Source: Candidatus Woesebacteria bacterium (GTDB lineage: Bacteria; Patescibacteriota; Microgenomatia; UBA8517). From it: a DNA stretch of 64,000 bases. The notes under the pieces are model-generated. The model was not told the origin of the DNA and did no database searches. It saw nothing but the letters and a program-made list of their open reading frames with translations. Below are positions 1-21,297 of this stretch, piece after piece. The stretch covers positions 337,833 through 401,832 of the forward strand of contig CP055308.1 in the NCBI GenBank assembly GCA_013374855.1. Direction: 5' to 3'. The stretch's first letter is position 1; each line of letters begins with the position of its first letter. The translations under genes and the position numbers were made by a program.

Positions 1-833
1 ATGTAAGGGATTTGGTTTAATATTTTGGGCATACCAAACAGAATAATCTTAAGGTGTGAGGTAATATAAGACGGGTTGACTAAGCCTTTTTGGTACCAAG
101 GTTCATCAAATATATTTGGTATTAATGCATATCCTTTGTCTAGAATGGTTCCAAATCTTAAGTAATTATAGATGCTGTTGAAAAGAAAAAATGGTAGTAT
201 TCCTGATAATAATTTTAGAATATTTTTGGTGTTTTTTTCTTTTAGGTTAAAAATAAAAAAGGGAATTGAGATTATTGTGTGAACACGGCTTAGGTAGGCT
301 GATCCAACAAGAACACCTATTAAGAAGGAATTTTTATTCTCTAATAATTTTTCTATAGCAAGGAGAAGAAAAAGGCAGGCAGTGGTTTGGCCCAGATACC
401 AAGAGGAGCCGACAGAGGACATATACCAGATAATGCTTCCTGTTCCTATCATAAGGGAAGATAAAATGGCGAATTTTTGATCCCTCTTTATTTTCAGTGA
501 TATTCTATATATTGAGGTGGCTATTAAACCTCCAATTATGTGGGCTAGGAATTGTTGTTGGAAAAGATCGCCGAGAATTGCTCTAAATGGCAAAAGCAGT
601 ATTGCCGGCATTGGGGGGTGGACAATATAGAATCTTCCGTTATTTGGAATAAGTTCTGAAAACCATGGAGGGTTTTCCTCAATCCAATATTTTCCTTTCA
701 AAAAAGCATCAGCGAGGCGGGAGAAATAATCGTAGGGAGTTTTGCCTGTTGAGGTAAATGTGTAGAGAAGAAAATTGAACAAAAAAATTAGAAATTGAGA
801 AGTGCTTTTATTTTTTATTACCTTTTTGAACAT
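1..833 (-). CDS. Polytopic membrane glycosyltransferase, GT-C fold, PMT/ArnT (GT39-like). Start codon at 833..831; the C-terminus runs off the window edge.
   Basis: The minus-strand frame is continuous from the ATG at 833 to position 1. The protein is hydrophobic and multi-pass, with an HPPMPAILLLP motif resembling the HPPL.K loop of PMT/ArnT-family enzymes. It is divergent from the neighbouring GT gene. The ORF track does not list it because it is truncated by the window edge. Confidence 0.5.
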   Translation of the reverse strand, partial: MFKKVIKNKSTSQFLIFLFNFLLYTFTSTGKTPYDYFSRLADAFLKGKYWIEENPPWFSELIPNNGRFYIVHPPMPAILLLPFRAILGDLFQQQFLAHIIGGLIATSIYRISLKIKRDQKFAILSSLMIGTGSIIWYMSSVGSSWYLGQTTACLFLLLAIEKLLENKNSFLIGVLVGSAYLSRVHTIISIPFFIFNLKEKNTKNILKLLSGILPFFLFNSIYNYLRFGTILDKGYALIPNIFDEPWYQKGLVNPSYITSHLKIILFGMPKILNQIPY

Positions 834-891
834 ATTTTATGATATATCTTTTTTGGTTTATTTTGTTTTATAATAGCTTGATTTTTTTAGA

Positions 892-3321
892 ATGAAAAAG
901 GCTTTTTTTAAGTACAGATTGTTAATTTTATTTTTTTCTGCTTTATTTTTAAGATTAGTTCTTTCTTTTTTTGGAACTTATGAGGGAGATTTTTATACTT
1001 TTATTGGCTGGAGTTTTCGTTTGGTATCAAGACCGTTGCCTGATTTTTACAAAGAATGGTCTGATTATTTGCCTGGATATCTTTACATACTTTATATTCT
1101 TGGTCGGATAAGACAAACTTTTGCTTTTATTCCAAATGAGATTCTTTATAAGTTTCCTGCTATTTTTTCTGATTTACTTGCTGGTTTGTTGGTTTATAAG
1201 ATAGTTGCGGGTTTAAAGAATAAAACGATTGCTTTTTGGGTTTCTATTGCCTATCTTTTTAATCCTGCTGTTTTTGCTAACTCTACTCTTTGGGGGCAGG
1301 TAGACTCACTAACTGTTCTTTTTCCTTTGCTTTCACTTTATTTTTTTAACATTTCTTTGCCATTTTCTTCATTTTTTCTTGCTTTTGGTGCTTTAGTTAA
1401 AGTACAAGCAGCCTTAGCTTTTATTCCTATTATAATTTTGTTTTGGAGAAAAGGATTGGGTTTTTACAAGCTTGTTAATTATGGCACTATTTCTGTTCTT
1501 ACGATAACTATTCTATTCTTGCCGTTTTTACCTTTTGGCAAGGATCTGGTGGATTTGCCGTCCTTTATCTTAGAAAGGATTGGTGCAACACTTGGGCAGT
1601 ATCCCTATCTTTCGGTGAACGCTTTTAATTTTTGGGGCTTATCTGGTTTTTGGGAGCAGTATTCTGATTATTTTCCAAACATTTTTCCAATTTTCATTTT
1701 ATTATTTGTTTCTTTTCTTCCTTATTTTAGAGCAAGAAACAAGGAAGGTCTGGAATATGTTGTTTTATCTTTGGTTTTTGCTGTATCTTTTCTTTTTTTT
1801 CCAAGAATGCATGAGCGTCATATGCTTCCTCTTTTTGCTCCCCTTGCTATATCTTGTGCTTTTTACCCCTTACTGTGGATAGTTTATTCCTTTTATTCCT
1901 TTTTTTATTTACTTAACCTTCGTTACGCTTTTGTTTGGCTGACAGAAGAAAGAAAAGAGATATTTACCAAACTTGAGATTAATTTGATTATTGTTCTTCT
2001 TCTTGTCCTTTTTGTTTTTTGGCTTTGGGTTGTTTGGCAGGACAAGAGAGATAACTTTTTTAAGAATATTGCTAAGTATTTCGGAAGATTTAGGAAAAAT
2101 TTTTCTGAAGACTATAAATTTCCCAAGTTTAATATAAATTCTAAAAGGGCTAAGTTTTTTTTGATTTTGATCTTAGTTTTTGCCTTTTTCTCACGGGTTT
2201 ATCAGTTGGGAAGACCTCAGCGAGAGTATTTTGATGAGGTCTATCATGCTTTTACAGCTCGGCTTATGCTTAAAGGCGATCCTAAAGCATGGGAGTGGTG
2301 GAATCCACATCCGGAGGGTTTTGCCTATGAGTGGAGCCACCCCCCTTTAGCAAAGCTGGGGATGCAACTAGGTATGCTTGTTTTTGGAGAAAACGCCTTT
2401 GGCTGGAGGCTTCCAGCTGCTTTGCTTGGCACGTTGTCGGTTCTGTTGGTTTATCTTTTGGCAAAAGAAATTTTTAAAGATTATCTTGTTGGTTTATTTT
2501 CAGCTTTGGTGTTCTCTCTTGATGGGCTTTTTTTGGTGGCGAGCAGGATTGGGATGAATGATATTTATGTTCTGTTTTTTTCTTTGCTTTCTATATATCT
2601 TTTTATTAAAGATAAATATTTCTTTTCTGCTTTGGCTTTGGGTCTTGCGTTTTCTTCTAAGTGGAGTGCTTTATGGGTTTTACCTATTCTTGTTTCTTCA
2701 TTCTTTGTCTTCAAAAAGAGGGTGGCTCTTCCTTATCTTTGGTTTTTGGTTCTACCACCTCTTGTCTATGTTTCAAGTTATACTCAAATGTTTTTGACTG
2801 GACATTCTTTTGATATTTTTTGGGGAGTGCAAAAACAAATGTGGTGGTATCATACAGGACTAGAGGCAACTCATCCTTACACCTCACCTTGGTGGAGCTG
2901 GCCGTTTTTGTTACGACCTGTTTGGCTTTACACGAATTCTTTTCCTGACGGAAAAGTGGCAAATATTTACTTTTTAGGCAATCCTGTTGTTTTTTGGTTT
3001 GGTGTTTTAGCTGTGTTTTATTCTCTTTATCTTTCATGGAAAAATAGATTTAAAAAACTTGCTTGGGTTATTTTTTCTTATTTTGTTTTCTTTGTTCCAT
3101 GGGCAGTTGCTCCTCGCATTATGTTTTTGTATCATTATCTTCCTAGCGTTCCTTTTATGAGTATGGTTTTGGGTTTTGTTTTAAGAAGAGATTTTGATAA
3201 GGCTTTGATATTTTTTACAATTGCCGCTTTTGTCTTTGCTTATTTTTACCCCCATCTTACAGGTATTCCCATAACAAAAGCTCTCGATATTTCTTACTAC
3301 TGGTTTGATAGCTGGCGTTAG
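892..3321 (+). CDS. Two-domain polytopic membrane glycosyltransferase. The C-terminal half is a protein O-mannosyltransferase-like (GT39/PMT) domain; the N-terminal half is a second GT-C-like membrane domain.
   Basis: The 809-aa product has many TM helices. Its C-terminal half carries the PMT hallmarks YFDEVYHAFTA and HPPLAKLGMQLGMLVFGENAFGWRLP, matching the FDEVH / HPPL-K loop-1 motifs of GT39 enzymes. Confidence 0.7.
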   Translation: MKKAFFKYRLLILFFSALFLRLVLSFFGTYEGDFYTFIGWSFRLVSRPLPDFYKEWSDYLPGYLYILYILGRIRQTFAFIPNEILYKFPAIFSDLLAGLLVYKIVAGLKNKTIAFWVSIAYLFNPAVFANSTLWGQVDSLTVLFPLLSLYFFNISLPFSSFFLAFGALVKVQAALAFIPIIILFWRKGLGFYKLVNYGTISVLTITILFLPFLPFGKDLVDLPSFILERIGATLGQYPYLSVNAFNFWGLSGFWEQYSDYFPNIFPIFILLFVSFLPYFRARNKEGLEYVVLSLVFAVSFLFFPRMHERHMLPLFAPLAISCAFYPLLWIVYSFYSFFYLLNLRYAFVWLTEERKEIFTKLEINLIIVLLLVLFVFWLWVVWQDKRDNFFKNIAKYFGRFRKNFSEDYKFPKFNINSKRAKFFLILILVFAFFSRVYQLGRPQREYFDEVYHAFTARLMLKGDPKAWEWWNPHPEGFAYEWSHPPLAKLGMQLGMLVFGENAFGWRLPAALLGTLSVLLVYLLAKEIFKDYLVGLFSALVFSLDGLFLVASRIGMNDIYVLFFSLLSIYLFIKDKYFFSALALGLAFSSKWSALWVLPILVSSFFVFKKRVALPYLWFLVLPPLVYVSSYTQMFLTGHSFDIFWGVQKQMWWYHTGLEATHPYTSPWWSWPFLLRPVWLYTNSFPDGKVANIYFLGNPVVFWFGVLAVFYSLYLSWKNRFKKLAWVIFSYFVFFVPWAVAPRIMFLYHYLPSVPFMSMVLGFVLRRDFDKALIFFTIAAFVFAYFYPHLTGIPITKALDISYYWFDSWR

Positions 3322-3324
3322 TGC

Positions 3325-5190
3325 TTACAGAATTAGGGCAAGAGATATTATTATTAATAGAATACTTATCGTCATTCCCATCATTGTTGGTGTGGAGATA
3401 CCAGCATCTGGTAGAGGTTCATCTTCAGGGGTTGGAGTAGGTATAAAAGTTGGTCTTGGTGTAGAGGTTGCTGTGGATCTTGGTCTGGGTGTAGGTGTTT
3501 CTTCCTCAGGTGTAGGTGTTGGTGAAGGTCTGGGTGTAGGTGTTTCTTCCTCAGGTGTAGGTGTTGGTGAAGGTGTTGCCTGTTCCAAATCGAAGTACAG
3601 CGGTGTACATGCATCCTCCGATGTCTCACATGGGAAAAACTTTATTTCCGTTCCTGTCCAAAACACTTCGGAATTGTTTACTAATATTCCATGATCCCAT
3701 TGGTAGAAACCGCAGATGTTATTTATTATGGAAAATGTTGCTGTTTTGGTTTCTCCCGGTCCTAATGTAATTGTTTCCTGACTAGTGAAATATGGAGGAT
3801 TGTTTCCGTAAGAAACCAGAGTTTGCGAGTCGGTACAAGTTTTTATGTTTTTTTCTTTGTAGTAGTTACAGCTTAAAGCACCAGCGCCTTTTTCGGTTGC
3901 CAATCTTTCCTGCCCTCCTGATGGATCATGTGGTGGTACGGCTGGGTTGTCAAAGCAGTGATTTGCATTCCAAAAGATTTTTCCGTTGTGGACTATTGCT
4001 CTCCTTCTATATTCCTTTCCACCCCGCCATATGCTTGTATAATACCAATTTCCTACTATGTATCCATCTACCTGCCCTTGGATATCCCCTTCGCCCGGGA
4101 GAGAGGATAATTCTGCAGGTCCTTTCCATGTGGTATCGCTATCCCATTTTGGGGCTCCATTTTCTATTGGTATCTGTCTTGAATAACCATTGTTATTACG
4201 CCAAAAAACTTGGCCAATGTGAGGCTGGTTTTGGTTAAATGTGACGTATTGATGTAAACTCTGGAATCTACCGTTGCCGGGATATTTACTTATGTCTATC
4301 TCTTCCCATCTGAACTTATTTCCTTCCCAAGGCACGTCTGGTGTGTTTATAGGCATTACTCTTCTATAAGCTTTTGTTATATTGTTTGTTTCTCTCCATA
4401 TTTCTTCATAGATTGTGGAGTTAAATTCGAATATTGCTTCGGCTATTACGTCTCCTGTGCCAGGGTAGTTGCTTGTATTAATCTCTTTCCATTCACTCCA
4501 CTTTATATCAACTTGTTCATCCCCTCTCGAGGTACTATCAACAATAATACCACTCCTTTTGTAGTTTTTATTTCCTATCCACATTGATTCCCAAATTGTT
4601 CTTGTCTTTTCAACCCTAAAGCTTGATCCTGCACTTGGCACCCCATTGGCAGGCAGTTCTATGTTTTGCGGGCCACTCCATTCTGATTGTACTCCCTCGT
4701 AAAAAATCTGAGTAAACTTTCGATAAGCCTCTTCCAAGTTTCCACCACCTTGTGTTCGGATAAATTCATTTATATCCTCCGGATAGTAGAGGTCTGTACA
4801 TTTTCCTACAGGTAATCCAATGGTGTACATCTTATAGGGGAAGGCTAGTAGTCTCAGTGTTAAGTTTTGATTCGTTTTGTTTGTAATAGTGTATTTTTGT
4901 GTTAGCACTCCACCTGTTACTGGTCTTGCATCTGTTTGCCCGCCAGGCTTAAAGTAAGTATGAGACTCATAATTTCCCGGTCCTGTGTCAACAACAGTAA
5001 CCTTTAGTTTTTGGCTTTCAAGTATTGTGCCTGATGGTGCTGCTTCACTTTTTTCTGGTGTTGTAGGGGCAACAGGCTTTTGCCTTAGTTTGTACAATCT
5101 GATAGATATAAAAATTCCCAACCCAGAAAGGATTAACAACAGAAAACTTAATATTATTAGTTTAATTTTCTTTTTTTTCGTGTTTTCCAT
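3325..5190 (-). CDS. Large cell-surface protein with an N-terminal signal-anchor TM, a Pro/Thr-rich tandem-repeat linker, and a C-terminal sorting signal LPDAGISTPT followed by a TM.
   Basis: The 621-aa product begins MENTKKKKIKLIILSFLLLILSGLGIF. Its C-terminus reads ...TPSPTPTPEEETPTPRPSPTPTPEEETPTPRP...EPLPDAGISTPTMMGMTISILLIIISLALIL. It is the last gene of the minus-strand operon. Confidence 0.7.
   Translation of the reverse strand: MENTKKKKIKLIILSFLLLILSGLGIFISIRLYKLRQKPVAPTTPEKSEAAPSGTILESQKLKVTVVDTGPGNYESHTYFKPGGQTDARPVTGGVLTQKYTITNKTNQNLTLRLLAFPYKMYTIGLPVGKCTDLYYPEDINEFIRTQGGGNLEEAYRKFTQIFYEGVQSEWSGPQNIELPANGVPSAGSSFRVEKTRTIWESMWIGNKNYKRSGIIVDSTSRGDEQVDIKWSEWKEINTSNYPGTGDVIAEAIFEFNSTIYEEIWRETNNITKAYRRVMPINTPDVPWEGNKFRWEEIDISKYPGNGRFQSLHQYVTFNQNQPHIGQVFWRNNNGYSRQIPIENGAPKWDSDTTWKGPAELSSLPGEGDIQGQVDGYIVGNWYYTSIWRGGKEYRRRAIVHNGKIFWNANHCFDNPAVPPHDPSGGQERLATEKGAGALSCNYYKEKNIKTCTDSQTLVSYGNNPPYFTSQETITLGPGETKTATFSIINNICGFYQWDHGILVNNSEVFWTGTEIKFFPCETSEDACTPLYFDLEQATPSPTPTPEEETPTPRPSPTPTPEEETPTPRPRSTATSTPRPTFIPTPTPEDEPLPDAGISTPTMMGMTISILLIIISLALIL
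3482..3571. repeat. Perfect 45-bp tandem duplication (two copies) inside the PT-rich linker coding region; each copy encodes a 15-aa PT-rich unit.
   Basis: The unit ggtctgggtgtaggtgtttcttcctcaggtgtaggtgttggtgaa is seen twice back to back, with a degenerate third copy upstream. Confidence 0.8.
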
Positions 5191-5197
5191 TTTTTAA

Positions 5198-6394
5198 TTA
5201 ATTAATGTCTCCTATCCACCCTATGCCCTCGTGGTAGATAGCCGCTTTTACAGTAAAGTTGACCACACCTTCTGGTATTTTGTATTGATAATAAATTTCC
5301 TTCTCTTCTGGATTATCTGTTGGTTTTTCTTTTGAGGCATCGACTTCTACAGGATTTTCGTTATTGACTTTAAACTTTGCCTTTTTAAACATGTTTGGGT
5401 TTTTTGACTTTCCTGTTATTGTAAAGTAAACTGTATCACCCGGTTTCAGTTTTGATAAGGTTTCACTATTAAGTAATCTCCAATTATTATTTTCCATTTG
5501 ATAGGCTTTTACATCCAGACATTCGACACTACTATCTTGCTTCTCGCTTGATATTGTTCTTACAACACAGGCAGGCATAGGAACTGATATTGGTTGCCCT
5601 TCCTTTTGAAAGTATGCTGTTATAGAAAGGTTTGAGACTACCTTGCCTGTTAGCTCGTCTTTGACGAACAGTTCCTCGTAACGTAGTGTTCTTTTACCTT
5701 CAGTTCTGGGTTCTTTATTTGGGTCCTCAAAAATTAAAAGATGGCTTCCTGGCGGACATATGTCTTGAGCTGTTGTTATGTCTCCTCCATCTTTTACACA
5801 AACAGGTTTTGGGTTGTTTTCAGGTGGAGGATCGTATAGGTTATCCATGTTGTATACTGCATACATAAAATAGTTTGCAGGTTCTTTAGATGTAGAAGTT
5901 ATGGTGATAGTTTCACCGGGTTTTAATGTTTTCTTGTTGACGTTAGCACTTTGACAGAGATCTGGCCTTTGTGGTGAGGGTGTTGTTTGTGGTGTATTGG
6001 GCTTTCCACGGCAACATCCCTGACACATACCCTTTTTCTTGCATGTACCGTCATCGTTGCATAGTCTGTCTATTATTTCATCACATTTGTCTGTAGCTGC
6101 CTTTTCTCTTATGTTTTGAGATTGTTGGCTAAGATAAACCCCGGTTCCTAATCCTCCGATCATAAGAAGCAATCCAAGTATTGTAGCTATTATTTTTCTT
6201 TTTCTTGTAGATTTTTTCTTGCTAGTAGTGAATGAAATAGTGTTTGGAACTTGATAATTATCTGTACTTGGATTTTGGGGTGCGTTTGGGTTTTCCTTAT
6301 CTTGCAAAGGTGGTATATCAACAAGTGGATCATTATTGACGGGAGCTTGTGGGCTATTATTAACATTTAAATGATTTACTTTATTTTGATCCAT
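5198..6394 (-). CDS. Membrane-anchored Cys-rich surface protein with the TM-QQSQNIREKAA N-module and CARDB/Ig-like beta-sandwich repeats. It has no C-terminal sorting signal.
   Basis: The 398-aa product has a basic patch KKKSTRKRK, then the TM IIATILGLLLMIGGLGTGVY, then LSQQSQNIREKAATDKC. A Cys-cluster follows, and LKPGETITIT / LKPGDTVYFTIT beta-sandwich signatures are present. Confidence 0.7.
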   Translation of the reverse strand: MDQNKVNHLNVNNSPQAPVNNDPLVDIPPLQDKENPNAPQNPSTDNYQVPNTISFTTSKKKSTRKRKIIATILGLLLMIGGLGTGVYLSQQSQNIREKAATDKCDEIIDRLCNDDGTCKKKGMCQGCCRGKPNTPQTTPSPQRPDLCQSANVNKKTLKPGETITITSTSKEPANYFMYAVYNMDNLYDPPPENNPKPVCVKDGGDITTAQDICPPGSHLLIFEDPNKEPRTEGKRTLRYEELFVKDELTGKVVSNLSITAYFQKEGQPISVPMPACVVRTISSEKQDSSVECLDVKAYQMENNNWRLLNSETLSKLKPGDTVYFTITGKSKNPNMFKKAKFKVNNENPVEVDASKEKPTDNPEEKEIYYQYKIPEGVVNFTVKAAIYHEGIGWIGDIN

Positions 6395-6441
6395 ATATTT
6401 ATATTCCTACTTAATTTTTATTTTTGCAAGAGCTCTTTTGC

Positions 6442-7311
6442 TCAAAACACTATTGAAAAAAACGAGATTAGTATTAGCAGAATTCCTGTTGTTATACCTA
6501 AAAATGTGGGTGTGCTAACACCGGATTCTGGCTGTGGAAGGGGAGATGGTGTGGGTGTTTTTATGTTTATTTGTGTTTGGCTTGTTGGAAAGGGAGTGGT
6601 TGTTTTCTCTGGTTCTGTTGTATTTACCGGAGTTTTGTTACTTGGGGTGGGTGTTGTGGGCGTTTCTGTAGGTTGACTTGATTCTACTTTGTAATTTCCT
6701 GTGCTTGATGGTGTAAGGAGAATATCTTCTCCTGTTGTTTTGTTGGTTGCTTTTGTAGTAGTGGGCTCAAATACTAGAGTGATTGATCCTGGGTTATAGC
6801 CTTTGAAAGTAATAGTGGCAAGAATTTCTTCACCCGATGTCTTATATCCGGTGGTTGAGCTGTTTAGCCCACCAATACGGATTTCTGCTAAACCATCTGA
6901 AGCATCGTAGGTCTTTATTGGAAAGTTCCAACCCCCGTTAACTAAAAGGTTAGAATTAATTTGGATATTTTCTGCTTTTATTGGAGGTTCAGGGGAACTG
7001 TATTGATATGTTAGATTTATTGTAAGGGCTGATATGTAATTACCCGCAGTATCAATGAGTATATTTACATCGAAATTTTCATCCTTTTTGATAGTTTTAG
7101 TCTCTGGTGAAAGAAATACTCTCACTGTGCCTGTTGGCGTGGCGGCTTTTTCTCTTATTTCTTGATTCTTTTTGACCAAAATTATACCTATCGCTGTTCC
7201 GACCACAAGCGAAAGTATACCGAGAGTTATTAGTGCTATTTTTCCTCTTTTTCTGTTTTTTCTTTGGGTGATTATCTTATCTTCTTCCATCGTAAATTTA
7301 TTTGCCAACAA
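6442..7311 (-). CDS. Cohesin-like domain surface protein (scaffoldin-like) with an N-terminal TM-KNQEIREKAA module and a C-terminal PT-rich linker plus PQPESGVSTPT-TM sorting signal.
   Basis: The 289-aa product has a central ~130-aa segment FDVNILIDTAGNYISALTINLTYQY...GLAEIRIGG...SGEEILATITFKGYNPGSITLVF with a cohesin-type beta-sandwich pattern. The cohesin domain is approximately at 6744..7140. Confidence 0.55.
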   Translation of the reverse strand: MLANKFTMEEDKIITQRKNRKRGKIALITLGILSLVVGTAIGIILVKKNQEIREKAATPTGTVRVFLSPETKTIKKDENFDVNILIDTAGNYISALTINLTYQYSSPEPPIKAENIQINSNLLVNGGWNFPIKTYDASDGLAEIRIGGLNSSTTGYKTSGEEILATITFKGYNPGSITLVFEPTTTKATNKTTGEDILLTPSSTGNYKVESSQPTETPTTPTPSNKTPVNTTEPEKTTTPFPTSQTQINIKTPTPSPLPQPESGVSTPTFLGITTGILLILISFFSIVF

Positions 7312-7861
7312 TGAAATTCAGTTCTTTTCCGGAGTTATCTATAATTTTAGTTTCTTCACTTACGGCTATATTTTCCTTTTCAAATTCTTTACCAATATCT
7401 ATTGTTGCTAAAATCACTTCTTGATTGTTTCCAATTGTTAGTTTTTCTCCAATTATTACCCCTCCTAACTTGAAAATAGTTTTGTTTTCTTTGATCTCTA
7501 CATTTTTGATAGGAAATATGAAGCCATTTTTTGCAAGTTCGCTTTGGATTGATTGGTTGGTTAGGTTATATAAAGGTTCATCTAATATTACCTCCATAGT
7601 GAAAGCTCTAATATACTCTTCTTTTTCTCTAATGTTTTCGATAGAAATTATTATTTTTGTTTTTTCGGTCATTTTTGTCCTAAGTTTTAGTGGGGGTTCT
7701 TCTTGCGGAGGTGTATATATTTCTTCAATTTGTGTGTTAATGTTTTGCTCTTTTGGATACTCTTTTGATAAATATTTTGCTATGACACCAAACAAAGCAA
7801 CTATAAATATGGCCAGAGAAAAAGCAAGTGTTATATTCAAAGTTTTATTTCTGTTTTCCAT
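7298..7861 (-). CDS. Hypothetical N-terminally membrane-anchored protein in the surface operon.
   Basis: The 187-aa product has the N-terminal TM LNITLAFSLAIFIVALFGVIA. It is tightly packed between the dockerin and cohesin genes, with a 14-nt overlap with the downstream gene. Confidence 0.45.
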   Translation of the reverse strand: MENRNKTLNITLAFSLAIFIVALFGVIAKYLSKEYPKEQNINTQIEEIYTPPQEEPPLKLRTKMTEKTKIIISIENIREKEEYIRAFTMEVILDEPLYNLTNQSIQSELAKNGFIFPIKNVEIKENKTIFKLGGVIIGEKLTIGNNQEVILATIDIGKEFEKENIAVSEETKIIDNSGKELNFIVGK

Positions 7862-7866
7862 TTGTG

Positions 7867-9411
7867 TTAGTCTCCTTTAATGATAAATGATGACCAGTTT
7901 AAAGCAACAAGTGCTAAATCATCAATTGTGATATAACCATCTTTAGTTATGTCAGCCCCAATCATATTTTTATCTGATGCATTTACTTTTATTTTGAAGT
8001 CTGTATAGTATTTCAGTACGAGAGATATATCCTCTATGCTTATAATGTTGTCGTTGTTAGCATCTCCTGCTTTTAGTTCATCTTTGATGTCTGTGCTTTT
8101 GTCTATTATTGTATTGTTATTGCTTATTTGTACGTTGGCGAATTTTTTTCTAAGATGAGATACTCCTTTTATGTAAAGATTATAAGTACCGGCGGGGATA
8201 TTGTTTCCTTGTTCATCAGTTGAGAAATTAATTGTCCAGATTCCGTTTTCATCAACAGAAACGGGTGCTTGCCCGATCTTGTGAGTTTTCTCTTCGTTTG
8301 TAAGGGTGATGTAAGTATCTAATTGAGAGGGAATGTTTGATTTAATTTTTGTTGTAATCCCTTGTTGTCTGAAGAGAATTTTTATGTTTTCTGTGGGACT
8401 GCTTTTTGGGGAAACTGCTATTATCAGAGCATAATCATTAAAGTCGCATTCTGCTTTTTTAGCATAATCCCCCCAGCATTGTTGGGAGATAATTATTCCT
8501 CCCGAGCTTTGTGTCGTCTTGATTAAAGATGATACATCCTTTTCTTTGCACTTATTGTTTTCTGGTTTTATCCATCCTTCGAAGGGGTAAGGCCCACTAT
8601 CACTGCCAACGTCTTCTCCATAAATACAAAGTTTATCCCCGTTTTTGACTTGGACCCCCGTTACTATTACTTGATCCGTTTTTGTGTCTTTTGTGTCTAT
8701 CAATTTGTCATATTCGGTTAAACTGCAAGTTTGGCTGTTTTTCTTTAGGGCAATTTTGGGTGGGGTAGATTCTAAAAAGCTGGCAAAGGAAAGCAGGACT
8801 TCTCCATCGTTTTTTATGTCTAAAACTGTTGGATTTGGATTTTTATCGCAAGAGTTTTCACCTCCACCGCCTGATGATGTAGTACAAGTACATTTTGGTT
8901 TTCCATCGCTACCGCTTTGGTTTAAGGCAATGCATTTCTTACCACTTCCACAAGAATCTCCAGGATTTTTCCCTTGACATTTTGCAGCCGAAGCACTGCT
9001 GCATCCTGCTTGTGTTCCTCCACCACCTCCACCCCCGCCGCTACCTTGAGCCTGGATACATTTTCCATCTTGATATAAAGGTTTATCAGTGGGACAACAT
9101 GTTGTCAGACGTCCGCTTGTGGACATTATGCAATATATTGCTTCTGGTAAAGATTTGGGTAAATTGCAATCAGTGGCTGGGCAATAAGGATAGTCGCAGG
9201 CCGAGTGTTTGATGCATCTTTCTTGATTGCACATGTAACCTTTGGGGCAGCCAGCTCCAATTCCACAAAGACCTCTGTTGCCAGAATCACAGATCATCTC
9301 TGCCTTTTCTCTTATGTCTTGAGATTGTTGTGTTAGGACTATTCCAGATGTTGCTCCAATGAGCAGTAGGAGGGTGAAGAGGATTTTAATTATCTCTTTT
9401 TTTGTAATCAT
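7867..9411 (-). CDS. Cys-rich surface protein with the TM-QQSQDIREKA N-module, a poly-Gly run, a prealbumin-like beta domain and a C-terminal dockerin domain.
   Basis: The 514-aa product ends with two Ca-binding dockerin repeats, GDANNDNIISIEDISLVLKYY and ADITKDGYITIDDLALVALNW. It contains GGGGGGGG and many Cys. Its start overlaps the stop of the upstream gene by 1 nt. Confidence 0.7.
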   Translation of the reverse strand: MITKKEIIKILFTLLLLIGATSGIVLTQQSQDIREKAEMICDSGNRGLCGIGAGCPKGYMCNQERCIKHSACDYPYCPATDCNLPKSLPEAIYCIMSTSGRLTTCCPTDKPLYQDGKCIQAQGSGGGGGGGGTQAGCSSASAAKCQGKNPGDSCGSGKKCIALNQSGSDGKPKCTCTTSSGGGGENSCDKNPNPTVLDIKNDGEVLLSFASFLESTPPKIALKKNSQTCSLTEYDKLIDTKDTKTDQVIVTGVQVKNGDKLCIYGEDVGSDSGPYPFEGWIKPENNKCKEKDVSSLIKTTQSSGGIIISQQCWGDYAKKAECDFNDYALIIAVSPKSSPTENIKILFRQQGITTKIKSNIPSQLDTYITLTNEEKTHKIGQAPVSVDENGIWTINFSTDEQGNNIPAGTYNLYIKGVSHLRKKFANVQISNNNTIIDKSTDIKDELKAGDANNDNIISIEDISLVLKYYTDFKIKVNASDKNMIGADITKDGYITIDDLALVALNWSSFIIKGD

Positions 9412-10733
9412 TAGTTTGTAAAAAGCAGAACGCCACTTGCTGTAAACAATAGTAAACCGGCAAAAAGCAAAATTAAAGTAGGTGTTTTAACACCGGATTC
9501 GGGTTGGGCAGGGGTAGCTGATGGGCTTGCTATTTTTGGGGTAGGAGTGAAAGCAAGTGGTGTTGGTGTTAGACTTGCCGAAGGTGTGCTTTCAAAAGCA
9601 GGCTCATCTGTTTCTGCAGCTTTGATTGTAAAGTTTCTCACAATGTTTCTTAAGATTCCGTTTTCGTCACGATAGGTGATTGTTATTTTGTGCTCCCCTG
9701 GAGACAGATTTTTGGGAGGGGACCATCTCCAAGTACCGTCGGATGATGCTCTTATGGTATCGGAAATCGGGCTTTCGGATTCTACCTTAATTGTTATTTG
9801 TTCTTGGGGAGGAGCTTTTCCAAAAAATTCTGGTTTGGTTGTGTAAATTGTTTCTCCGTCTTCTATGCTTTCAAGAGATACCGTTTTGTTTGTAGTTGTG
9901 TTTTTTTCATTTTCTTCAATGTCAAACCTTGGTTTCTTGGTTTTTTCTTCTGGTGTTTCAATTTCTGAGCTTGGCAGAGAAGCTTCTTGGTTTGTTGTTG
10001 TAGATGTTATGTTTGTAAAGTCGTGGTTTTCTCCCAATATCATTGGTGGGAGAGTTAAACCTGTTGCTAAATAAGCTTCTGCGGTTGATATTCCTTGGGG
10101 TCCTGCTTGAGCAATGATGGAGACTTTGAGGTTGGAAACTGATTGGAGATAATTACTTAAATTGCTGTCTAGAAGAGAGTTAATATTTATTATCCAATTG
10201 CCATTTCCTGATGTTGTAGTTGATAGAACTTGCGCTCCCTCTATGTTTAGGATTACAAGAATGTTTGTTGCTTCAGTTCCTGAAGCAGTGATGACTTTAC
10301 CTCCTATTCTTATATTGTCTGATGACGCATTGTTGAGTGGTGGTGCTGTCTTAACTTCCCATGCTTTTTGATTGTTGTCATACGTCTTGTCGTCTGAGAT
10401 TATTTTGAAAAAGTAATTTTTGTTTGGGGAAAGTCCTGAGATAGTTGATGAGTGTACAAAGCTTTTGCCTTCTATTTCATCTAGTGCTGTTTGGTTTAGA
10501 TTGTTTTCACTTTCTCCCCATATAACAAAACCTGTTGTTCTTTGAGAAGTTGTCCATATTACAGAAAAAGATGAACTTGTTATGTTTGTAATTTTTACAT
10601 CTTGAGGAGGATAATTTCCTTCAGCGCCAAGCCTAAATATTTGCCTTTGTTTGACAAGAATTACAGCTATGGGTAAACTTGTTATAAGCAGGAATAACCC
10701 GATTATTGTTGGTATTCTTATTTTGTCCATCAT
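9411..10733 (-). CDS. Fibronectin type III domain surface protein with the variant N-module TM-VKQRQIFRLGAEG and the C-terminal sorting signal AQPESGVKTPT followed by a TM.
   Basis: The 440-aa product has an FN3 signature PPQDVKITNITSSSFSVIWTT...GFVIWGE...ISGLSPNKNYFFKI, located at about 10358..10610. The C-terminus reads ...PAQPESGVKTPTLILLFAGLLLFTASGVLLFTN. Confidence 0.7.
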   Translation of the reverse strand: MMDKIRIPTIIGLFLLITSLPIAVILVKQRQIFRLGAEGNYPPQDVKITNITSSSFSVIWTTSQRTTGFVIWGESENNLNQTALDEIEGKSFVHSSTISGLSPNKNYFFKIISDDKTYDNNQKAWEVKTAPPLNNASSDNIRIGGKVITASGTEATNILVILNIEGAQVLSTTTSGNGNWIININSLLDSNLSNYLQSVSNLKVSIIAQAGPQGISTAEAYLATGLTLPPMILGENHDFTNITSTTTNQEASLPSSEIETPEEKTKKPRFDIEENEKNTTTNKTVSLESIEDGETIYTTKPEFFGKAPPQEQITIKVESESPISDTIRASSDGTWRWSPPKNLSPGEHKITITYRDENGILRNIVRNFTIKAAETDEPAFESTPSASLTPTPLAFTPTPKIASPSATPAQPESGVKTPTLILLFAGLLLFTASGVLLFTN

Positions 10734-11092
10734 TACTCCTCATCGATTTCATATTCACCTGTAATTTCATTCCTTTCAACAGGCTCTATTGTAGGCGAGG
10801 GGGTTTCCGTTTTTGGTGTAGGAGTGTTTTGTATGCTAACTTCTTTTGGGGTGGGGTTTGGTGTTTTAATTATTGTTTCCTTGAAACCGCCTTCTTCAAA
10901 GTGTTTTTTATTCTTTATTTTTTCTATTACTTCAAGTCCTACGTTTGGATCAACAGGTTGTATAATTTCTGGAGGAACAACAACAGGCAGAGGTTTTTTG
11001 AAAGTTTGGTAGATGCTATAAAATACCCAGCTTACCACAGTTATTGAGGTAAGGATTAGTGTAAAAACTGAATTTGGTAATTTTTTCGCCAT
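10733..11092 (-). CDS. Small Pro-rich membrane-anchored protein, in the PilP-like position downstream of pilO.
   Basis: The 119-aa product has an N-terminal TM and a PT-rich tail. Its start overlaps the pilO stop by 1 nt (TAATG), consistent with translational coupling. Confidence 0.4.
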   Translation of the reverse strand: MAKKLPNSVFTLILTSITVVSWVFYSIYQTFKKPLPVVVPPEIIQPVDPNVGLEVIEKIKNKKHFEEGGFKETIIKTPNPTPKEVSIQNTPTPKTETPSPTIEPVERNEITGEYEIDEE

Positions 11093-11820
11093 TATTGTTC
11101 TTTATCTATCATTTCCATATCTTCTTTTTTAGTGTTTTCTTGATTCTTTTTAATTTCTTTTTCTTTGCTTTCCATAAAGTATAATGCCTTTGCGTTTATG
11201 TTAAGGTTTAATGTCTCGCTATTAGAATCATCCTCGCTGTCTTTTTCTGGTTGCAGATTAAACTGATCGAATATTAGTATTCTTAAGAGGTTTTCGTAAG
11301 TTTGAATGGTTTTTATTAGATTTTCATATCGTCCTTTTATTGAAATACTTGTTTCAAAGTAGCTTGAATTTTCTGGTATTTTTGTTCTATCTACACCTAC
11401 ATTGGAATTGCCTGCCAAGATGATGTTTTTTGTGGATATTGATCTTATTTCAACTTCAGATTCATTTGAGGCAGCTTCGATTTGTCTTATTACTATCTCA
11501 GGGTCTGGTTTTGATGGCAAAGATGTGTCAAGCAAGGAAAGGCTACTTTCTTCTTGCGATAGTATTTGTTGTGCTTTTTGAAGATTTTTTATTTTTATAT
11601 CCATCTTTGACAAAGTCTCTTTTTTGGCTTTTATTTCTTTATTTATTTCTATTATGGTGTTGGCTGTTGGTTTCAAGGCAAAAACAGAAAAAATTACTAT
11701 TGCCAAGGATGTGAGTATTAATTCAACAAAGTTTCTAACATTTTCCTTTTCTTTGTAATAATTGTAGTTTTTCCAGAATAGGTTTTTGTATTGATTGTAC
11801 GTATTTCTCCAGCTTCTCAT
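11092..11820 (-). CDS. pilO: Type IV pilus assembly protein PilO-like.
   Basis: The 242-aa product has a short cytoplasmic N-terminus, one TM (LILTSLAIVIFSVFAL), a coiled-coil and a C-terminal domain (ISIKGRYENLIKTIQTYENLLRILIF) typical of PilO. It lies immediately downstream of pilN. Confidence 0.6.
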   Translation of the reverse strand: MRSWRNTYNQYKNLFWKNYNYYKEKENVRNFVELILTSLAIVIFSVFALKPTANTIIEINKEIKAKKETLSKMDIKIKNLQKAQQILSQEESSLSLLDTSLPSKPDPEIVIRQIEAASNESEVEIRSISTKNIILAGNSNVGVDRTKIPENSSYFETSISIKGRYENLIKTIQTYENLLRILIFDQFNLQPEKDSEDDSNSETLNLNINAKALYFMESKEKEIKKNQENTKKEDMEMIDKEQ

Positions 11821-11828
11821 ACTTTATT

Positions 11829-12419
11829 TTAATTTTCAGTTTTTTTCACTGGTATAGACAAACTGAATTTTAGTAGTTGACTATTTTCCTCGTCTGGTCC
11901 TATCTGTGACAGAGCGGTATTTTTGAATTCTTCTTGTGATTGAAGGTTAACAAGAATTTGAGCTATAGAATTTTCATCCTTTGCTATGCCAGAAATAGTA
12001 ATTTTTTCTTCGTTTAAGGCAATTGATGACAAAATTATTGTTGGAGGGATTTGACTTGTTAGTTTGCTTATGACCTCGGAAGGAATAATTTTGTTTGATG
12101 AAACCTCGCTTATGATAGAGGTTTTCTTTTGCACTTCTCTAATTCTGTTTTCGGTCTCTTTCATTGCTTTTATTTGTGCTTCTTTTTGTCTTATTTCTTC
12201 TGATAGGTCGGTGTTTTTAGCATCAAGCCAGAATCTAGACATGAAAGCGGAGATGACGAAAAGTTCAACTATTATTACCAGAGTTCTAAAAGTTGATAAG
12301 AACCAAACCAAGACTCTGCCTGCAGTTGTTTCTGAGAACTTGTCTTGAGGCAATAAATTTATTTGTTTTTCTTTCTTGCTTTTAAGGGCAGACATCAAAG
12401 AAATAATATCACAAAGCAA
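11829..12419 (-). CDS. pilN: Type IV pilus assembly protein PilN-like.
   Basis: The 196-aa product has the conserved N-terminal INLLP motif (the PilM-binding motif) followed by a TM, a coiled-coil and a periplasmic domain. Confidence 0.7.
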   Translation of the reverse strand: MLCDIISLMSALKSKKEKQINLLPQDKFSETTAGRVLVWFLSTFRTLVIIVELFVISAFMSRFWLDAKNTDLSEEIRQKEAQIKAMKETENRIREVQKKTSIISEVSSNKIIPSEVISKLTSQIPPTIILSSIALNEEKITISGIAKDENSIAQILVNLQSQEEFKNTALSQIGPDEENSQLLKFSLSIPVKKTEN

Positions 12420-12434
12420 TTAGTACTGGAAGTA

Positions 12435-12695
12435 TTATTTTTTGTTCTTTTTATTTTTTACAAGGGGTGTGATTTTTGAGATTTTGCTTTTAATTCTTGA
12501 AGCTTTGTTTTTGTGAATTGCTTTCTTTTTTGCTGCCTTGTCTATTTCTGATATTAGTTTTTTTAAGATTTCTGGATTTTTATCTTTTTTGAACTTTCTC
12601 ATTAAGATATCGATTTTTTTGAAGATCAATAAGTTTTTTGCCCGTTTTCTTAACGAACTTCGGAGGGCTCTCTTGGCTGTCTTTGTTACTGGCAT
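12435..12695 (-). CDS. rpsT: 30S ribosomal protein S20.
   Basis: The product reads TKTAKRALRSSLRKRAKN...AIHKNKASRIKSKISK, matching the bS20 signature. It sits 15 nt upstream of pilN on the same strand. Confidence 0.75.
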   Translation of the reverse strand: MPVTKTAKRALRSSLRKRAKNLLIFKKIDILMRKFKKDKNPEILKKLISEIDKAAKKKAIHKNKASRIKSKISKITPLVKNKKNKK

Positions 12696-12758
12696 ATATT
12701 GTATTTTTTTAAATTACTTTGTGAAGTATAATTCAGTTAAGTTTCATTTTCAACTACT

Positions 12759-14480
12759 ATGTTTGAGAAAATATTGGGAAAAAGCAAAAAATTTTTTTCC
12801 TCGCAGCAGACTTCGATTTTGTCGGCGGCATTTGTAATTATGGTTATGGTTATTTTTTCAAGAATTTTAGGCCTTGTAAGACAAAGAGTTCTTGCCCACT
12901 TCTTTAATGTAAATGAGCTTTCTTTGTTTTTTGCAGCATTTAGGCTTCCTGATACTTTGTTTGAGGTCTTGATTTTTGGCTCATTTTCTTCTGCTTTTGT
13001 TCCTGTTTTTGCACGGCTTGCGAAAAAAAATATTATAAAAGCTTGGGGTCTTGCCTCAAGTGTAATGAACGTTGGGCTCATTGTTTTTTTTGTTTTGGTT
13101 TTGGGATTTCTTTTTTTGGCTTCTCGTTTTTACTCCATTTTTGCACCAGGATTCACAACAGAAGATCAGGAGAAAATTGTTTATTTGAGCAGGTTTCTTT
13201 TTTTAGCACAAGGAATATTTGTTGCAAGTTATGTCTTAACGGGGGTTCTCGAGTCTCTCAAAAGGTTTTTGATACCTGCGCTTGCCCCTGTCTTTTACAA
13301 TTTGGGAATTATCTTGGGAACAATAGTTTTCTATTCTCGCTTTCATCTTTTGGCGCCTGTTTTGGGAGTAATTGTAGGAGCTGTTCTTCATTTTTTGATT
13401 CAATATCCTCTCGCGCATAATTTGGGTTTTCGTTTTAGTTTTCGCGTAAACGAAAAAGAAAGTTTGAAGAAAGTGGCAAAGCTTGCTTTTCCAAGGATTA
13501 TAGAGGTCTCTTTTTTGCAGGTTTCCAAAGTGGCAGAGCTCTTCTTTTCTTCTTTGATATCTTCTGCTTCCTATGCCTATTATACTTTTGCCAATACTCT
13601 GCAACTTTTGCCTGTTGGACTTATTGGGTTGTCCATTTCCAAGGCGGCTCTTCCGAGTTTCTCAGAAAAAGCTGATTCAAGGAAGGAGTTTGCTGATTTA
13701 TTTTGGAAAACTTTCAATGAGATGGTTTTTCTTATTTTGCCAATTTCTGCTTCACTTTTTGTATTAAGAATTCCTTTGGTAAGGCTTGTTTATGGCACTG
13801 ATATTTTTGATTGGGAGGCAACTGTGCAAACAGGTCTTGTTCTTTCTGCCTTTGCGGTAAGTATTACCTTTCAGGCGGTCAACTCTTTGATGTCGAGGGC
13901 TTTTTATGCCTTGCACGACACAAGAACTCCTGTTTTGGTTTCGGTTTTTTCTTTGATTGTTGTTGTGGTTTTGGACTTTGTATTTATAAGGGTCTTGGGT
14001 TTACCGATTTGGGGTTTGGCAGCCGCGTTTTCTTTGGCTAGTTTTTTGCAGTTTTTACTTCTTTTTTTTCTTATAAACAGGGAGTTTGGGGGGGGTTTTT
14101 TATTTGTTAACTTTTATCTTCTCTTTAAGAAATCTGTTGCTGTTTTGTTGTCTTCCTTCTTAATGTTTTTTATGTTGAAGTTTTTTGACAGAAGTGTGTG
14201 GGTGAAAGAACTTTCTTTTTTGGGGAAAACAAGTATTGCTGAGAAAATTTCTTTTGAAAGTTTTGTTTTGGATACTCGGTATACCTTTAATCTTTTGGTT
14301 CTGACAATTCTGGTCTTTCTTGTTGGATTTTTGTCATATATTGCATTTTCCTTGATTCTTGGGAACAGGGAAATTTACTCGTTTTATAGATTAATAAAGT
14401 CAAGATTGTTGCTTCAGTTTGATAGATTGAAGAGAGTTGAGATTAAGGAGGAAAGTGTTAATATTCCACCGGATCAATGA
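12759..14480 (+). CDS. murJ: Lipid II flippase MurJ (MviN family) with a C-terminal extension.
   Basis: The product carries SRILGLVRQRVLAHFF...AAFRLPDTLFEVLIFGSFSSAFVPVF and about 14 TM helices across 573 aa. Confidence 0.8.
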   Translation: MFEKILGKSKKFFSSQQTSILSAAFVIMVMVIFSRILGLVRQRVLAHFFNVNELSLFFAAFRLPDTLFEVLIFGSFSSAFVPVFARLAKKNIIKAWGLASSVMNVGLIVFFVLVLGFLFLASRFYSIFAPGFTTEDQEKIVYLSRFLFLAQGIFVASYVLTGVLESLKRFLIPALAPVFYNLGIILGTIVFYSRFHLLAPVLGVIVGAVLHFLIQYPLAHNLGFRFSFRVNEKESLKKVAKLAFPRIIEVSFLQVSKVAELFFSSLISSASYAYYTFANTLQLLPVGLIGLSISKAALPSFSEKADSRKEFADLFWKTFNEMVFLILPISASLFVLRIPLVRLVYGTDIFDWEATVQTGLVLSAFAVSITFQAVNSLMSRAFYALHDTRTPVLVSVFSLIVVVVLDFVFIRVLGLPIWGLAAAFSLASFLQFLLLFFLINREFGGGFLFVNFYLLFKKSVAVLLSSFLMFFMLKFFDRSVWVKELSFLGKTSIAEKISFESFVLDTRYTFNLLVLTILVFLVGFLSYIAFSLILGNREIYSFYRLIKSRLLLQFDRLKRVEIKEESVNIPPDQ

Positions 14481-20437: not shown

Positions 20438-21297
20438 ATGAAAAATCTGATTATTATGATATCTTAGGAGTTGGCAGAAATGCCTCGGCAGAGGAGATAA
20501 AAAAAGCTTATCGGAGGCTTGCTTTGGAATGGCATCCAGACAGACATAAAGATGATAAAGAGGTTGCTGAAAAGAAATTCAAGGAAATAAACGAGGCTTA
20601 TCAAGTCTTATCAGATCCTGAAAAGAGGGCAGCTTACGATCAGTTTGGTCATTCTGCTTTCTCACCGGGTGGGGCTGGGTTTTCTGGTTCCCCTTTTTCT
20701 CAATCCGGCCGCTGGGGTCCCTTTACTTATACTTATACTACCTCTGGCGGCTCTCCCTTTGAAGGTTTTGATTTTGGTGATCCATTTGATATTTTTGAAC
20801 AGTTTTTTGGGGGATCGCCTTTTGCAAGAACAAGAAGAGTTCCTCGCTATTCTATTACCCTTGATTTTATGGAAGCAGTTGAGGGTTGCGAGAAGGAAAT
20901 TGTAGTTGAAGGGAAAAAAAGGAGGGTAAAAATTCCAGCTGGTATTGATGAAGGATCACGCATTAATTTTGGCGACTTTATGCTTTCTGTGAATATCCGT
21001 CCACACCCAATTTTCGAGCGTGACGGAGCGGATGTTTATGTAAGAGTGAATATTCCCTACTCCTTGGCTGTTTTAGGTGGCGAAGTTGAGGTTCCAACCT
21101 TGGATGGGAGTGTTAAAGTGAGGGTAAGGGAAGGTACTAAGGCAGGCACACTGATGCGTCTTCGTGGCAGGGGCGTTAAGAGGTTGCGCGGTGCTGGTAG
21201 GGGCGATTTTTATGTAAAGTTTGATATTCTGGTGCCAGATAAGATAAAAGGTAATCAAAAGGCAGCGGTTCAGGCACTTAGAAAAGTAGGGCTTTAA
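20434..21297 (+). CDS. dnaJ: DnaJ-like co-chaperone (J domain, G/F region and C-terminal substrate domains) with no CxxCxGxG zinc finger; CbpA/type II-like.
   Basis: The product reads [32 protein letters not shown] and has a G/F-rich stretch. No Cys-rich Zn-finger repeats are present. Its start overlaps the clpB stop (ATGA). Confidence 0.8.

Follow-up and report, generated by a model that had tools for sequence, protein, structure and literature searches.

This report concerns a run of ten consecutive minus-strand open reading frames (ORFs) at positions 3325-12695 of a 64-kb stretch of contig CP055308.1 from a Candidatus Woesebacteria bacterium; we refer to this stretch, at its full length, as the window. 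The run is headed by rpsT, which is followed by nine genes (3325-12395): pilN, pilO and seven genes that we designate G4 to G10 (Table 1). The tight packing of these nine genes reported in the preliminary description of this DNA was borne out, as they are separated by 1-nt overlaps or by gaps of 5-47 nt. Overlaps of 1 nt with the sequence TAATG occur at three junctions (pilO/G4, G4/G5 and G5/G6), four further junctions have gaps of 5-8 nt, and 47 nt lie between G8 and G9; rpsT and pilN are 39 nt apart. At the G10 end, the run is 3 nt away from the stop codon of a convergent gene for an 809-aa glycosyltransferase, and at the rpsT end it adjoins the divergently oriented murJ gene. Two overlapping promoter matches are present upstream of rpsT, and a terminator scan revealed no convincing minus-strand terminator inside the run; the candidates did not lie significantly above shuffled sequences.

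Table 1. Features of the locus and of the remainder of the window discussed in the text
Feature	Positions	Strand	Remarks
rpsT	12435-12695	-	ribosomal protein S20, 86 aa; heads the run; Pfam Ribosomal_S20p E 4.5e-9, TIGR00029 E 1.6e-10
pilN	11829-12395	-	ATG start, 188 aa; ORF extends to TTG at 12419
pilO	11092-11820	-	242 aa
G4	10733-11092	-	119 aa
G5	9411-10733	-	440 aa
G6	7867-9411	-	514 aa
G7	7298-7861	-	187 aa
G8	6442-7290	-	282 aa; ORF extends to 7311
G9	5198-6394	-	398 aa
G10	3325-5190	-	621 aa
Sigma-70-like promoter matches (two, overlapping)	12698-12753	-	upstream of rpsT; TTGAAA-17-TATACT and TTCACA-16-TACAAT, 10/12 each; consensus level only
PMT/GT-C (GT39-type) glycosyltransferase	892-3321	+	809 aa, single gene, convergent
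murJ	12759-14480	+	lipid II flippase; divergent, upstream neighbour; PF03023 E 4.7e-69
Sortase	44034-44744	+	about 31 kb away; PF04203 E 6.8e-26, TIGR01076 E 5e-16; TLVTC catalytic motif visible; no curated class
425-aa protein	21294-22571	-	outside the operon; fourth carrier of the sorting signal; no Pfam or NCBIfam family
756-aa protein	41721-43991	+	adjoins the sortase gene
Second cohesin protein	26182-27237	+	Pfam-detectable, E 1.4e-8; adjoins a 1132-aa dockerin protein
Dockerin gene	22665-26063		3' end lies in the first copy of the repeat
Dockerin gene	45142-47565		3' end lies in the second copy of the repeat
670-bp direct repeat	25384-26052 and 46889-47557		99.6% identical

The first two genes after rpsT encode true PilN and PilO proteins, as had been proposed from the INLLP motif and the order of the two genes. 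The pilN product matches PF05137 with an E-value of 1.6e-12 (47.7 bits against a cut-off of 22.8) over profile positions 2-76 of 78, and the pilO product matches PF04350 with an E-value of 7.9e-9 (36.2 bits against a cut-off of 22) over positions 5-143 of 145. PilN starts with MSALKSKKEKQINLLPQ, which includes KQINLLPQ, a motif of the PilM-binding INLLP type, at residues 9-16; this short cytoplasmic N-terminus is followed by a single transmembrane (TM) segment and then by the PilN domain. The INLLP motif or a close variant of it is kept in most of about 30 PilN orthologues, and binding of PilM is predicted from this motif. PilO is likewise bitopic, with a TM segment at about residues 31-50, a coiled-coil region, the PilO domain and a charged tail. 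It gives secondary, weaker matches to T2SS-M and GspM (E 0.0024-0.03) which, together with the bitopic architecture, recall GspL and GspM of type II secretion; PilN and PilO are, however, the best-scoring families, and the searches turned up neither a GspL-type cytoplasmic domain nor a secretin or pseudopilin. A profile search with PilN returned 385 matches at E <= 0.001, and the 120 listed among them are all close orthologues of about 177-197 aa that contain the PilN domain. For PilO, 11 homologues were detectable, each in the same gene context wherever a contig was available. The matches listed fall into a single PilN family and a single PilO family, and nothing among them points to a second set of paralogues linked to pilus genes.

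A scan of genomes, in which each species was represented by one genome, yielded 28 related loci, and six metagenome contigs add to this collection. All 28 genome loci reside in metagenome-assembled genomes of the Microgenomates type within the candidate phyla radiation (CPR), assigned to Woesebacteria, Shapirobacteria, Daviesbacteria and Gottesmanbacteria. The question raised earlier, whether these genes would be dispersed in related genomes, can be answered clearly: they are kept together in the 28 genome loci and the six metagenome contigs, and all PilN and PilO relatives that we found sit in this same context. In nearly all loci that extend far enough, the divergent murJ is followed by rpsT-pilN-pilO-G4-G5, then by a Cys-rich, N-terminally anchored protein of the G9 type and a short protein of the G10 type with a sortase-type signal, onto which the PMT gene converges. 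The rpsT gene adjoins pilN in 27 related loci, murJ holds its position in essentially all of them, at least 15 have a convergent gene for an orthologue of the PMT protein (46-52% identity), and G5 was found in about 26 of the 28 genome loci at 25-65% identity. The median gaps in the clade are 1 nt for pilN to pilO, -4 nt for both pilO to G4 and G4 to G5, and 55 nt for rpsT to pilN. Gene content downstream of G5 differs between genomes. The trio G6-G7-G8 is limited to the three closest relatives (L002-L004) and therefore looks like an insertion between G5 and G9 of an older pilN-pilO-G4-G5-G9type-G10type locus. A minimal form, rpsT-pilN-pilO-small ORF-G5-PMT, is present in a complete genome (L018; CP055307.1), and more distant loci carry an LCP-family gene and a DUF2298 gene beside the PMT gene. 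The flanking genes hrcA, grpE, dnaK and murJ are equally syntenic. The conserved core of the locus is thus the translationally coupled set pilN-pilO-G4-G5, after which exchangeable surface proteins follow. Twelve of the records in this collection (L006, L007, L009-L011, L016, L022-L025, L028 and L029) are titled 'uncultured Gammaproteobacteria bacterium'; these are likely mislabelled, as neither the genes that they carry nor the named organisms closest to them (Woesebacteria, Shapirobacteria) fit that title.

The two core genes that follow pilO encode proteins of rather different build. G4 is bitopic, with a TM segment that contains the invariant residues W22 and Y28, a conserved VPxE..P..P.LD segment behind it (alignment of 27 orthologues) and a disordered C-terminal tail of Pro, Thr and acidic residues. 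It had been described as a Pro-rich protein in the PilP position; the position and the Pro-rich tail stand, but neither G4 nor its 26 orthologues gave a Pfam or PDB profile match, PilP included. PilP is a lipoprotein whose N-region is disordered and whose C-terminal HR domain forms a beta-sandwich (PF04351), whereas G4 has a TM anchor and is not long enough to accommodate such a domain; we consequently discarded an assignment of G4 as PilP and regard it as a positional analogue only. G5 is the FN3 protein that had been predicted from the sequence. Devoid of Cys residues, it consists of an N-terminal TM or signal segment, an fn3-like domain (fn3, E 1.1e-8; Pur_ac_phosph_N, E 1.3e-8, aa 42-116), a middle beta-sandwich, a Big_13 domain (E 6.6e-10, aa 296-360) and a Pro/Thr (PT) linker, and it ends in QPESGVKTPT followed by about 20 hydrophobic residues; a weak CarboxypepD_reg-like match was recorded as well. 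G5 is conserved along its full length in all of its domains, Gly414 and Thr419 of the C-terminal signal are near-invariant, and the protein evolves slowly relative to the cargo genes behind it.

The genes with which pilN and pilO are usually found had been reported missing next to the run, and this holds for a far larger region. Our scan of the 64-kb window covered ORFs of at least 130 aa, with small ORFs and those of rpoB/rpoC size left out, and none of the scanned ORFs is a pilM, pilin, pilB/T, pilC, secretin, extension ATPase, platform or prepilin peptidase gene; a prepilin motif (G-F/M-T-L-x-E) occurs nowhere in the window, and the Pfam-labelled flanks of the related loci contain no pilus genes. 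The 756-aa protein had been put forward as PilM-like, but Pfam assigns it Baseplate_J only (aa 464-564), NCBIfam yields nothing, and a phmmer search of the PDB gave no match at E <= 10, which leaves the PilM assignment unsupported, although not disproved. An exact look-up of this protein gave no record; one relative of 70% identity exists in metagenomes (L033), too few for a profile, and a single-sequence AlphaFold2 model of residues 1-295 is unusable (pLDDT 36). Its predicted topology places about 390 N-terminal residues in the cytoplasm and the Baseplate_J-like domain on the extracytoplasmic side, with one TM segment between them at about aa 395-417.

The literature offers a precedent for a separation of these genes. 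Ch65, a complete genome from the Microgenomates, has one pilus locus, for which PilA, minor pilins and PilD, B, T, C and M are listed but neither PilN nor PilO (PMC7143001). Saccharibacteria, by comparison, keep pilM-N-O together (PMC11623550). An enrichment of PilM/N/O and of sortases in the CPR has already been published, sortase being near-ubiquitous in Microgenomates (PMC6744442), and in the literature we found no description of a detached, rpsT-led pilN-pilO-G4-G5 operon nor of its sorting signal. Because the PilM motif is kept in PilN, because one family each of PilN and PilO was recovered, and because the Ch65 pilus locus has PilM without PilN and PilO, we take the two proteins of the present locus to be ordinary pilus proteins that are encoded away from the other pilus genes.

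The remaining genes of the run encode putative surface proteins. A C-terminal signal in which [LQ]P[DE][AS]G-x-x-TPT precedes a hydrophobic stretch of about 20 residues is carried by three proteins of the operon, G5, G8 and G10; the preliminary description had counted four, and the fourth carrier is the 425-aa protein encoded outside of it. This latter protein is built like the operon cargo, with a Pro-rich cytoplasmic N-tail, the sequence TM-Q..Q.IREKA, a Cys-rich region and long PT linkers. The sortase encoded in the window is the likely processing enzyme for these C-terminal signals. In G9, a cytoplasmic N-tail rich in Pro leads into TM-QQSQNIREKA, behind which lie a Cys-rich region and Ig-like sandwiches; the protein lacks a sorting signal. 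It had been called CARDB-like, a name that we reject, since a model built on 13 homologues is confident only for the conserved C-terminal domain of about 105 residues (aa 290-398), which is a generic Ig/fn3-like sandwich. G10 has a conserved N-terminal signal or anchor and an extensive region of W-rich repeats, from which a long PT linker leads to LPDAGISTPT and a hydrophobic C-terminus; its central region matched no family and no PDB entry. The G10-type proteins of the relatives are shorter (147-414 aa), end in ...LAL and are conserved only in the N-terminal 55 or so residues and in the C-terminal signal. At about residues 200-420 of G10, a W-rich unit of some 65 aa (W..W.EI..S.YPG.G ... Y.R) is repeated three to four times; these repeats could form blades of a propeller or of a lectin-like domain, and they are absent from the short G10-type proteins of the relatives. 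The N-terminal TM-QxIREKA module said to be shared by several proteins of the run is indeed present in G6, G8 and G9, and also in the 425-aa protein. As the pattern TM-Q..Q.IREKA is the consensus of the entire G8 family and of the G9 family, and occurs in unlinked genes as well, it seems to be a signal peptide or anchor typical of the lineage and not an operon-specific element.

The inserted trio G6-G7-G8 comprises the dockerin and cohesin proteins of the locus. G6, the Cys-rich dockerin protein of the preliminary description, contains 24 Cys residues and combines a TM-QQSQDIREKA N-terminus and a Gly run with a C-terminal X-module plus dockerin (XDoc); it is lineage-specific, with full-length homologues in L002-L004 only. 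Its residues 403-507 match the scaffoldin XDoc chains 4wi0_B from Acetivibrio (E 2.3e-5, aa 403-506) and 4u3s_B (E 5.2e-5), and two repeats of the DxNxDxxIxxxD type are visible in the sequence, while the Pfam Dockerin_1 score (PF00404; E 8.8e-4, 19.9 bits) remains below the cut-off of 22.9. In G8, TM-KKNQEIREKA precedes a divergent cohesin domain, which a PT linker connects to QPESGVSTPT and the hydrophobic C-terminus. On its own G8 has no Pfam match, with Cohesin (PF00963) below detection, but it belongs to a large family (512 matches at E <= 0.001 in a search of 1.84 billion representatives), and the profile of 71 family members matches cohesin structures across the whole domain (6kg8_A, E 6.4e-8; 6kgc_A, E 7.5e-8). 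Nine of these 71 proteins reach Pfam Cohesin themselves (best E 7.8e-14) and two reach Gram_pos_anchor. G7 is anchored at its N-terminus, lacks a sorting signal and matched nothing in Pfam or the PDB; it is a weak paralogue of the cohesin-type domain of G8 (BLASTP E 4e-4 over 112 aa), and against the G8 family hhalign gave a weak result (probability 14%, E 0.002, over 62 columns). The earlier term cohesin-like is thus well founded for G8 through its family profile, and G7 deserves it only weakly. Profile searches have, overall, upheld the assignments of PilN, PilO, fn3, dockerin and cohesin. Neither G6 nor any other protein of the operon contains a glycoside hydrolase, a carbohydrate-binding module or another catalytic domain, which rules out a cellulosome. 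The second cohesin protein of the window has a Trp/Pro/Lys-rich tail (PKPPKRPWWKLRWWN) in place of a sortase-type signal; it shares no detectable pairwise similarity with G8, and the two cohesins are therefore distant from each other.

Two convergent GT39-type genes had been reported at the end of the operon; there is a single ORF of 809 aa, with the PMT domains confined to residues 426-808 (PMT_4TMC, E 3.5e-21; PMT, E 3.5e-14; PMT_2, E 3.6e-14). With 68 bits against an NCBIfam equivalog cut-off of 800, the protein is a member of the family and no assigned orthologue. Its N-terminal half (positions 892-2151; about 420 residues), a polytopic membrane region, gave no family or structure match and may be a second GT-C-like module; the length of the fusion, about 790-840 aa, is conserved in the relatives.

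In CPR bacteria, type IV pili are believed to play a central part in attachment to hosts and in DNA uptake. PilN and PilO are bitopic membrane proteins that form, together with the cytoplasmic PilM, the alignment or stator part of the type IV pilus machine, which in these bacteria has to be held in a walled envelope that lacks an outer membrane and a secretin. Against this background we read the locus, with a probability of roughly 0.55, as a vertically inherited envelope locus of the Microgenomates in which relocated pilus proteins PilN and PilO are combined with lineage-specific extracytoplasmic partners, G4 and G5, and with wall-anchored cargo. PilN and PilO would still serve the pilus machine through a PilM encoded elsewhere. 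G4, with its conserved extracytoplasmic segment, and G5, with its three beta-sandwich domains, would be their partners in a cell without an outer membrane; the persistent coupling of pilN-pilO to the genes for G4 and G5 suggests such a physical partnership. Sortase would link G5 to the peptidoglycan and thereby tie the base of the pilus to the wall, so that the G5 tether might stand in for the role of PilP-PilQ/TsaP in diderm bacteria. The genes after the core would provide exchangeable surface cargo from the same transcript, membrane-anchored in the case of G9-type proteins and equipped with a sortase signal in the case of G10-type proteins. Within this cargo, wall-anchored G8 might dock the XDoc of G6 by analogy to ScaE, which docks ScaB or CttA in Ruminococcus. 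Since the Pro/Thr linkers adjoin a PMT-family enzyme, their O-glycosylation ahead of sortase anchoring is suggested, and the convergently encoded PMT protein would probably carry it out.

Such an arrangement shares features with several characterized systems and deviates from each of them. With the type IVa alignment subcomplex PilM-PilN-PilO-PilP of Pseudomonas, Myxococcus and Thermus, it has in common the PilN and PilO domains, their bitopic topology, the INLLP-type motif, the adjacent and coupled pilN and pilO genes, and a small Pro-rich protein, G4, in the PilP position. However, no pilM gene precedes and no pilQ gene follows the set, no pilus gene was found within 64 kb, G4 is TM-anchored without homology to PilP or an HR domain, and an fn3/Ig protein with a sortase-type signal follows G4 where the secretin would be. 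Monoderm type IV pilus loci, namely pilM-N-O of Clostridium perfringens and loci 1 and 2 of the Saccharibacterium TM7x, resemble the present case in a secretin-free machine that uses PilM/N/O (PMC11580942, PMC11623550, PMC6744442). In C. perfringens and Saccharibacteria, pilM-pilN-pilO lie inside the pilus loci, whereas here pilN-pilO are detached, stand after rpsT and lead an operon of putatively wall-anchored proteins. For G8 and G6, the closest counterpart is the ScaE-XDoc system of Ruminococcus flavefaciens, in which a sortase-linked single-cohesin protein binds the X-dockerin of ScaB or CttA (PMC5301203). The single cohesin, linker and sortase-type signal of G8, the X-module plus dockerin C-terminus of G6 and the neighbouring position of the two genes are the points of likeness; in contrast to ScaE, the cohesin of G8 is too divergent for Pfam, its pentapeptide is QPESG without a basic tail, and the trio is absent from most versions of the locus. 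The sortase-type signals, the long Pro/Thr linkers, the adjacent PMT-family enzyme and the LCP-family gene of distant relatives recall the surface glycoproteins of Actinobacteria. Those sortase-anchored proteins, for example GspA of Actinomyces oris, are reportedly glycosylated in a Pmt- or LCP-dependent manner before they are anchored. Unlike in that group, G8 and G10 lack a canonical LPXTG and basic tail and the sortase belongs to no curated class; glycosylation and anchoring are predicted for the present proteins.

Several points weigh against relocated pilus proteins with wall-anchored partners. The putative contact of G4 and G5 with PilN and PilO is a proposal from synteny and gene spacing alone, and G4 lacks similarity to PilP. 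G5 is absent from two loci (L016 and L029). The signals of G8 and G10 do not possess the positively charged tail of classic LPXTG substrates, the pentapeptides QPESG and LPDAG are non-canonical, and no sortase gene is present within the operon; a basic tail is present in many G5 orthologues. Because no pilM, pilin, ATPase or platform gene is found in the 64-kb window, which covers part of an 802-kb contig, the tie to a pilus machine in the present genome is indirect, and the literature support for a detached pilM concerns another genome, Ch65, and depends on the annotation given in that paper.

Among other accounts of the locus, we regard it as unlikely, though worth serious consideration, that its genes are conserved neighbours without a shared machine, with PilN and PilO serving the pilus and G4 to G10 representing unrelated secreted or wall proteins that were kept in an ancestral order of envelope genes (MurJ, rpsT, pilNO, surface proteins, PMT, LCP). 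The functionally unrelated rpsT is part of the same run, the housekeeping flanks murJ, hrcA, grpE and dnaK are no less syntenic, gene content downstream of G5 is variable, and we found no family link between G4 or G5 and any pilus component. Furthermore, CPR genomes are compact in general, and tight spacing alone is consequently weak evidence for a shared complex. What this account does not readily accommodate is that the overlaps of 1-4 nt along pilN, pilO, G4 and G5 persist down to about 25-30% protein identity, whereas the distance from rpsT to pilN stays loose, that even the minimal locus of the complete genome L018 still carries G4 and G5, and that G5 evolves slowly compared with the cargo genes. 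If the genes were mere neighbours, our finding would shrink to an annotation of the placement of pilN and pilO in this lineage.

The preliminary description had envisaged a bespoke, lineage-specific attachment apparatus. A locus conserved across the lineage is what we find as well, but the cohesin and dockerin genes fall outside of the conserved system, and we prefer relocated pilus proteins over a pilus-independent apparatus, which is less likely. In such a co-option, proteins of the PilN/PilO type would supply the membrane platform on which the co-encoded sortase substrates and cohesin/dockerin proteins are assembled or displayed, and this we consider very doubtful. It would explain why pilN-pilO are strictly linked to sortase-signal proteins and never to pilus genes in the 28 genome loci and six metagenome contigs; several cargo proteins share the N-terminal TM-Q..Q.IREKA module, and the conserved cytoplasmic N-tails of the G9-type proteins could touch a cytoplasmic partner. 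Yet PilN retains the PilM-binding motif, one PilN and one PilO family without a second pilus-linked set were recovered among the matches listed, most versions of the locus are devoid of cohesin and dockerin genes, the operon contains neither a sortase nor an ATPase or other energy source, and the TM-Q..R..A module recurs in unlinked genes and in the large G8 family. The pilus and the co-option readings could be bridged by a behaviour known from C. perfringens, where type IV pilus genes also help to secrete the matrix protein BsaC through the Gram-positive wall (PMC11580942), a possible functional parallel to the present locus.

Our preferred reading, relocated pilus proteins with partners and cargo, has a bolder variant that we hold for quite improbable: PilN-PilO-G4-G5 would be a Microgenomates-specific module that ties the alignment proteins covalently to the peptidoglycan via G5, replaces the PilP-secretin link and possibly also serves as the place where wall proteins from the same transcript leave the cell or are assembled. 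With or without this variant, the class-wide coupled pilN-pilO-G4-G5 module names two candidate wall-spanning parts of the CPR pilus machine, G4 and G5. The locus furthermore illustrates how a lineage-specific cohesin/X-dockerin pair can be slotted into an envelope operon, and it brings to light two sequence features of Microgenomates proteins, a sorting signal of non-canonical form, [LQ]P[DE][AS]G..TPT, and a signal-peptide module common to several proteins.

Outside of the operon, a direct repeat of 670 bp makes up the 3' ends (the last 223 or so codons, dockerin included) of two dockerin genes that are otherwise divergent, which suggests that a C-terminal module has recently undergone duplication or gene conversion. 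The base composition of the window is strongly asymmetric: GC skew is positive in 31 of its 32 2-kb segments and reaches +0.34, and AT skew lies between -0.22 and -0.32 over the minus-strand genes and at about 0 elsewhere, with the strongest contrast between positions 1-14000 and 14001-64000. A strand disparity reminiscent of this asymmetry has been described for Ch65, likewise a Microgenomates genome (PMC7143001).

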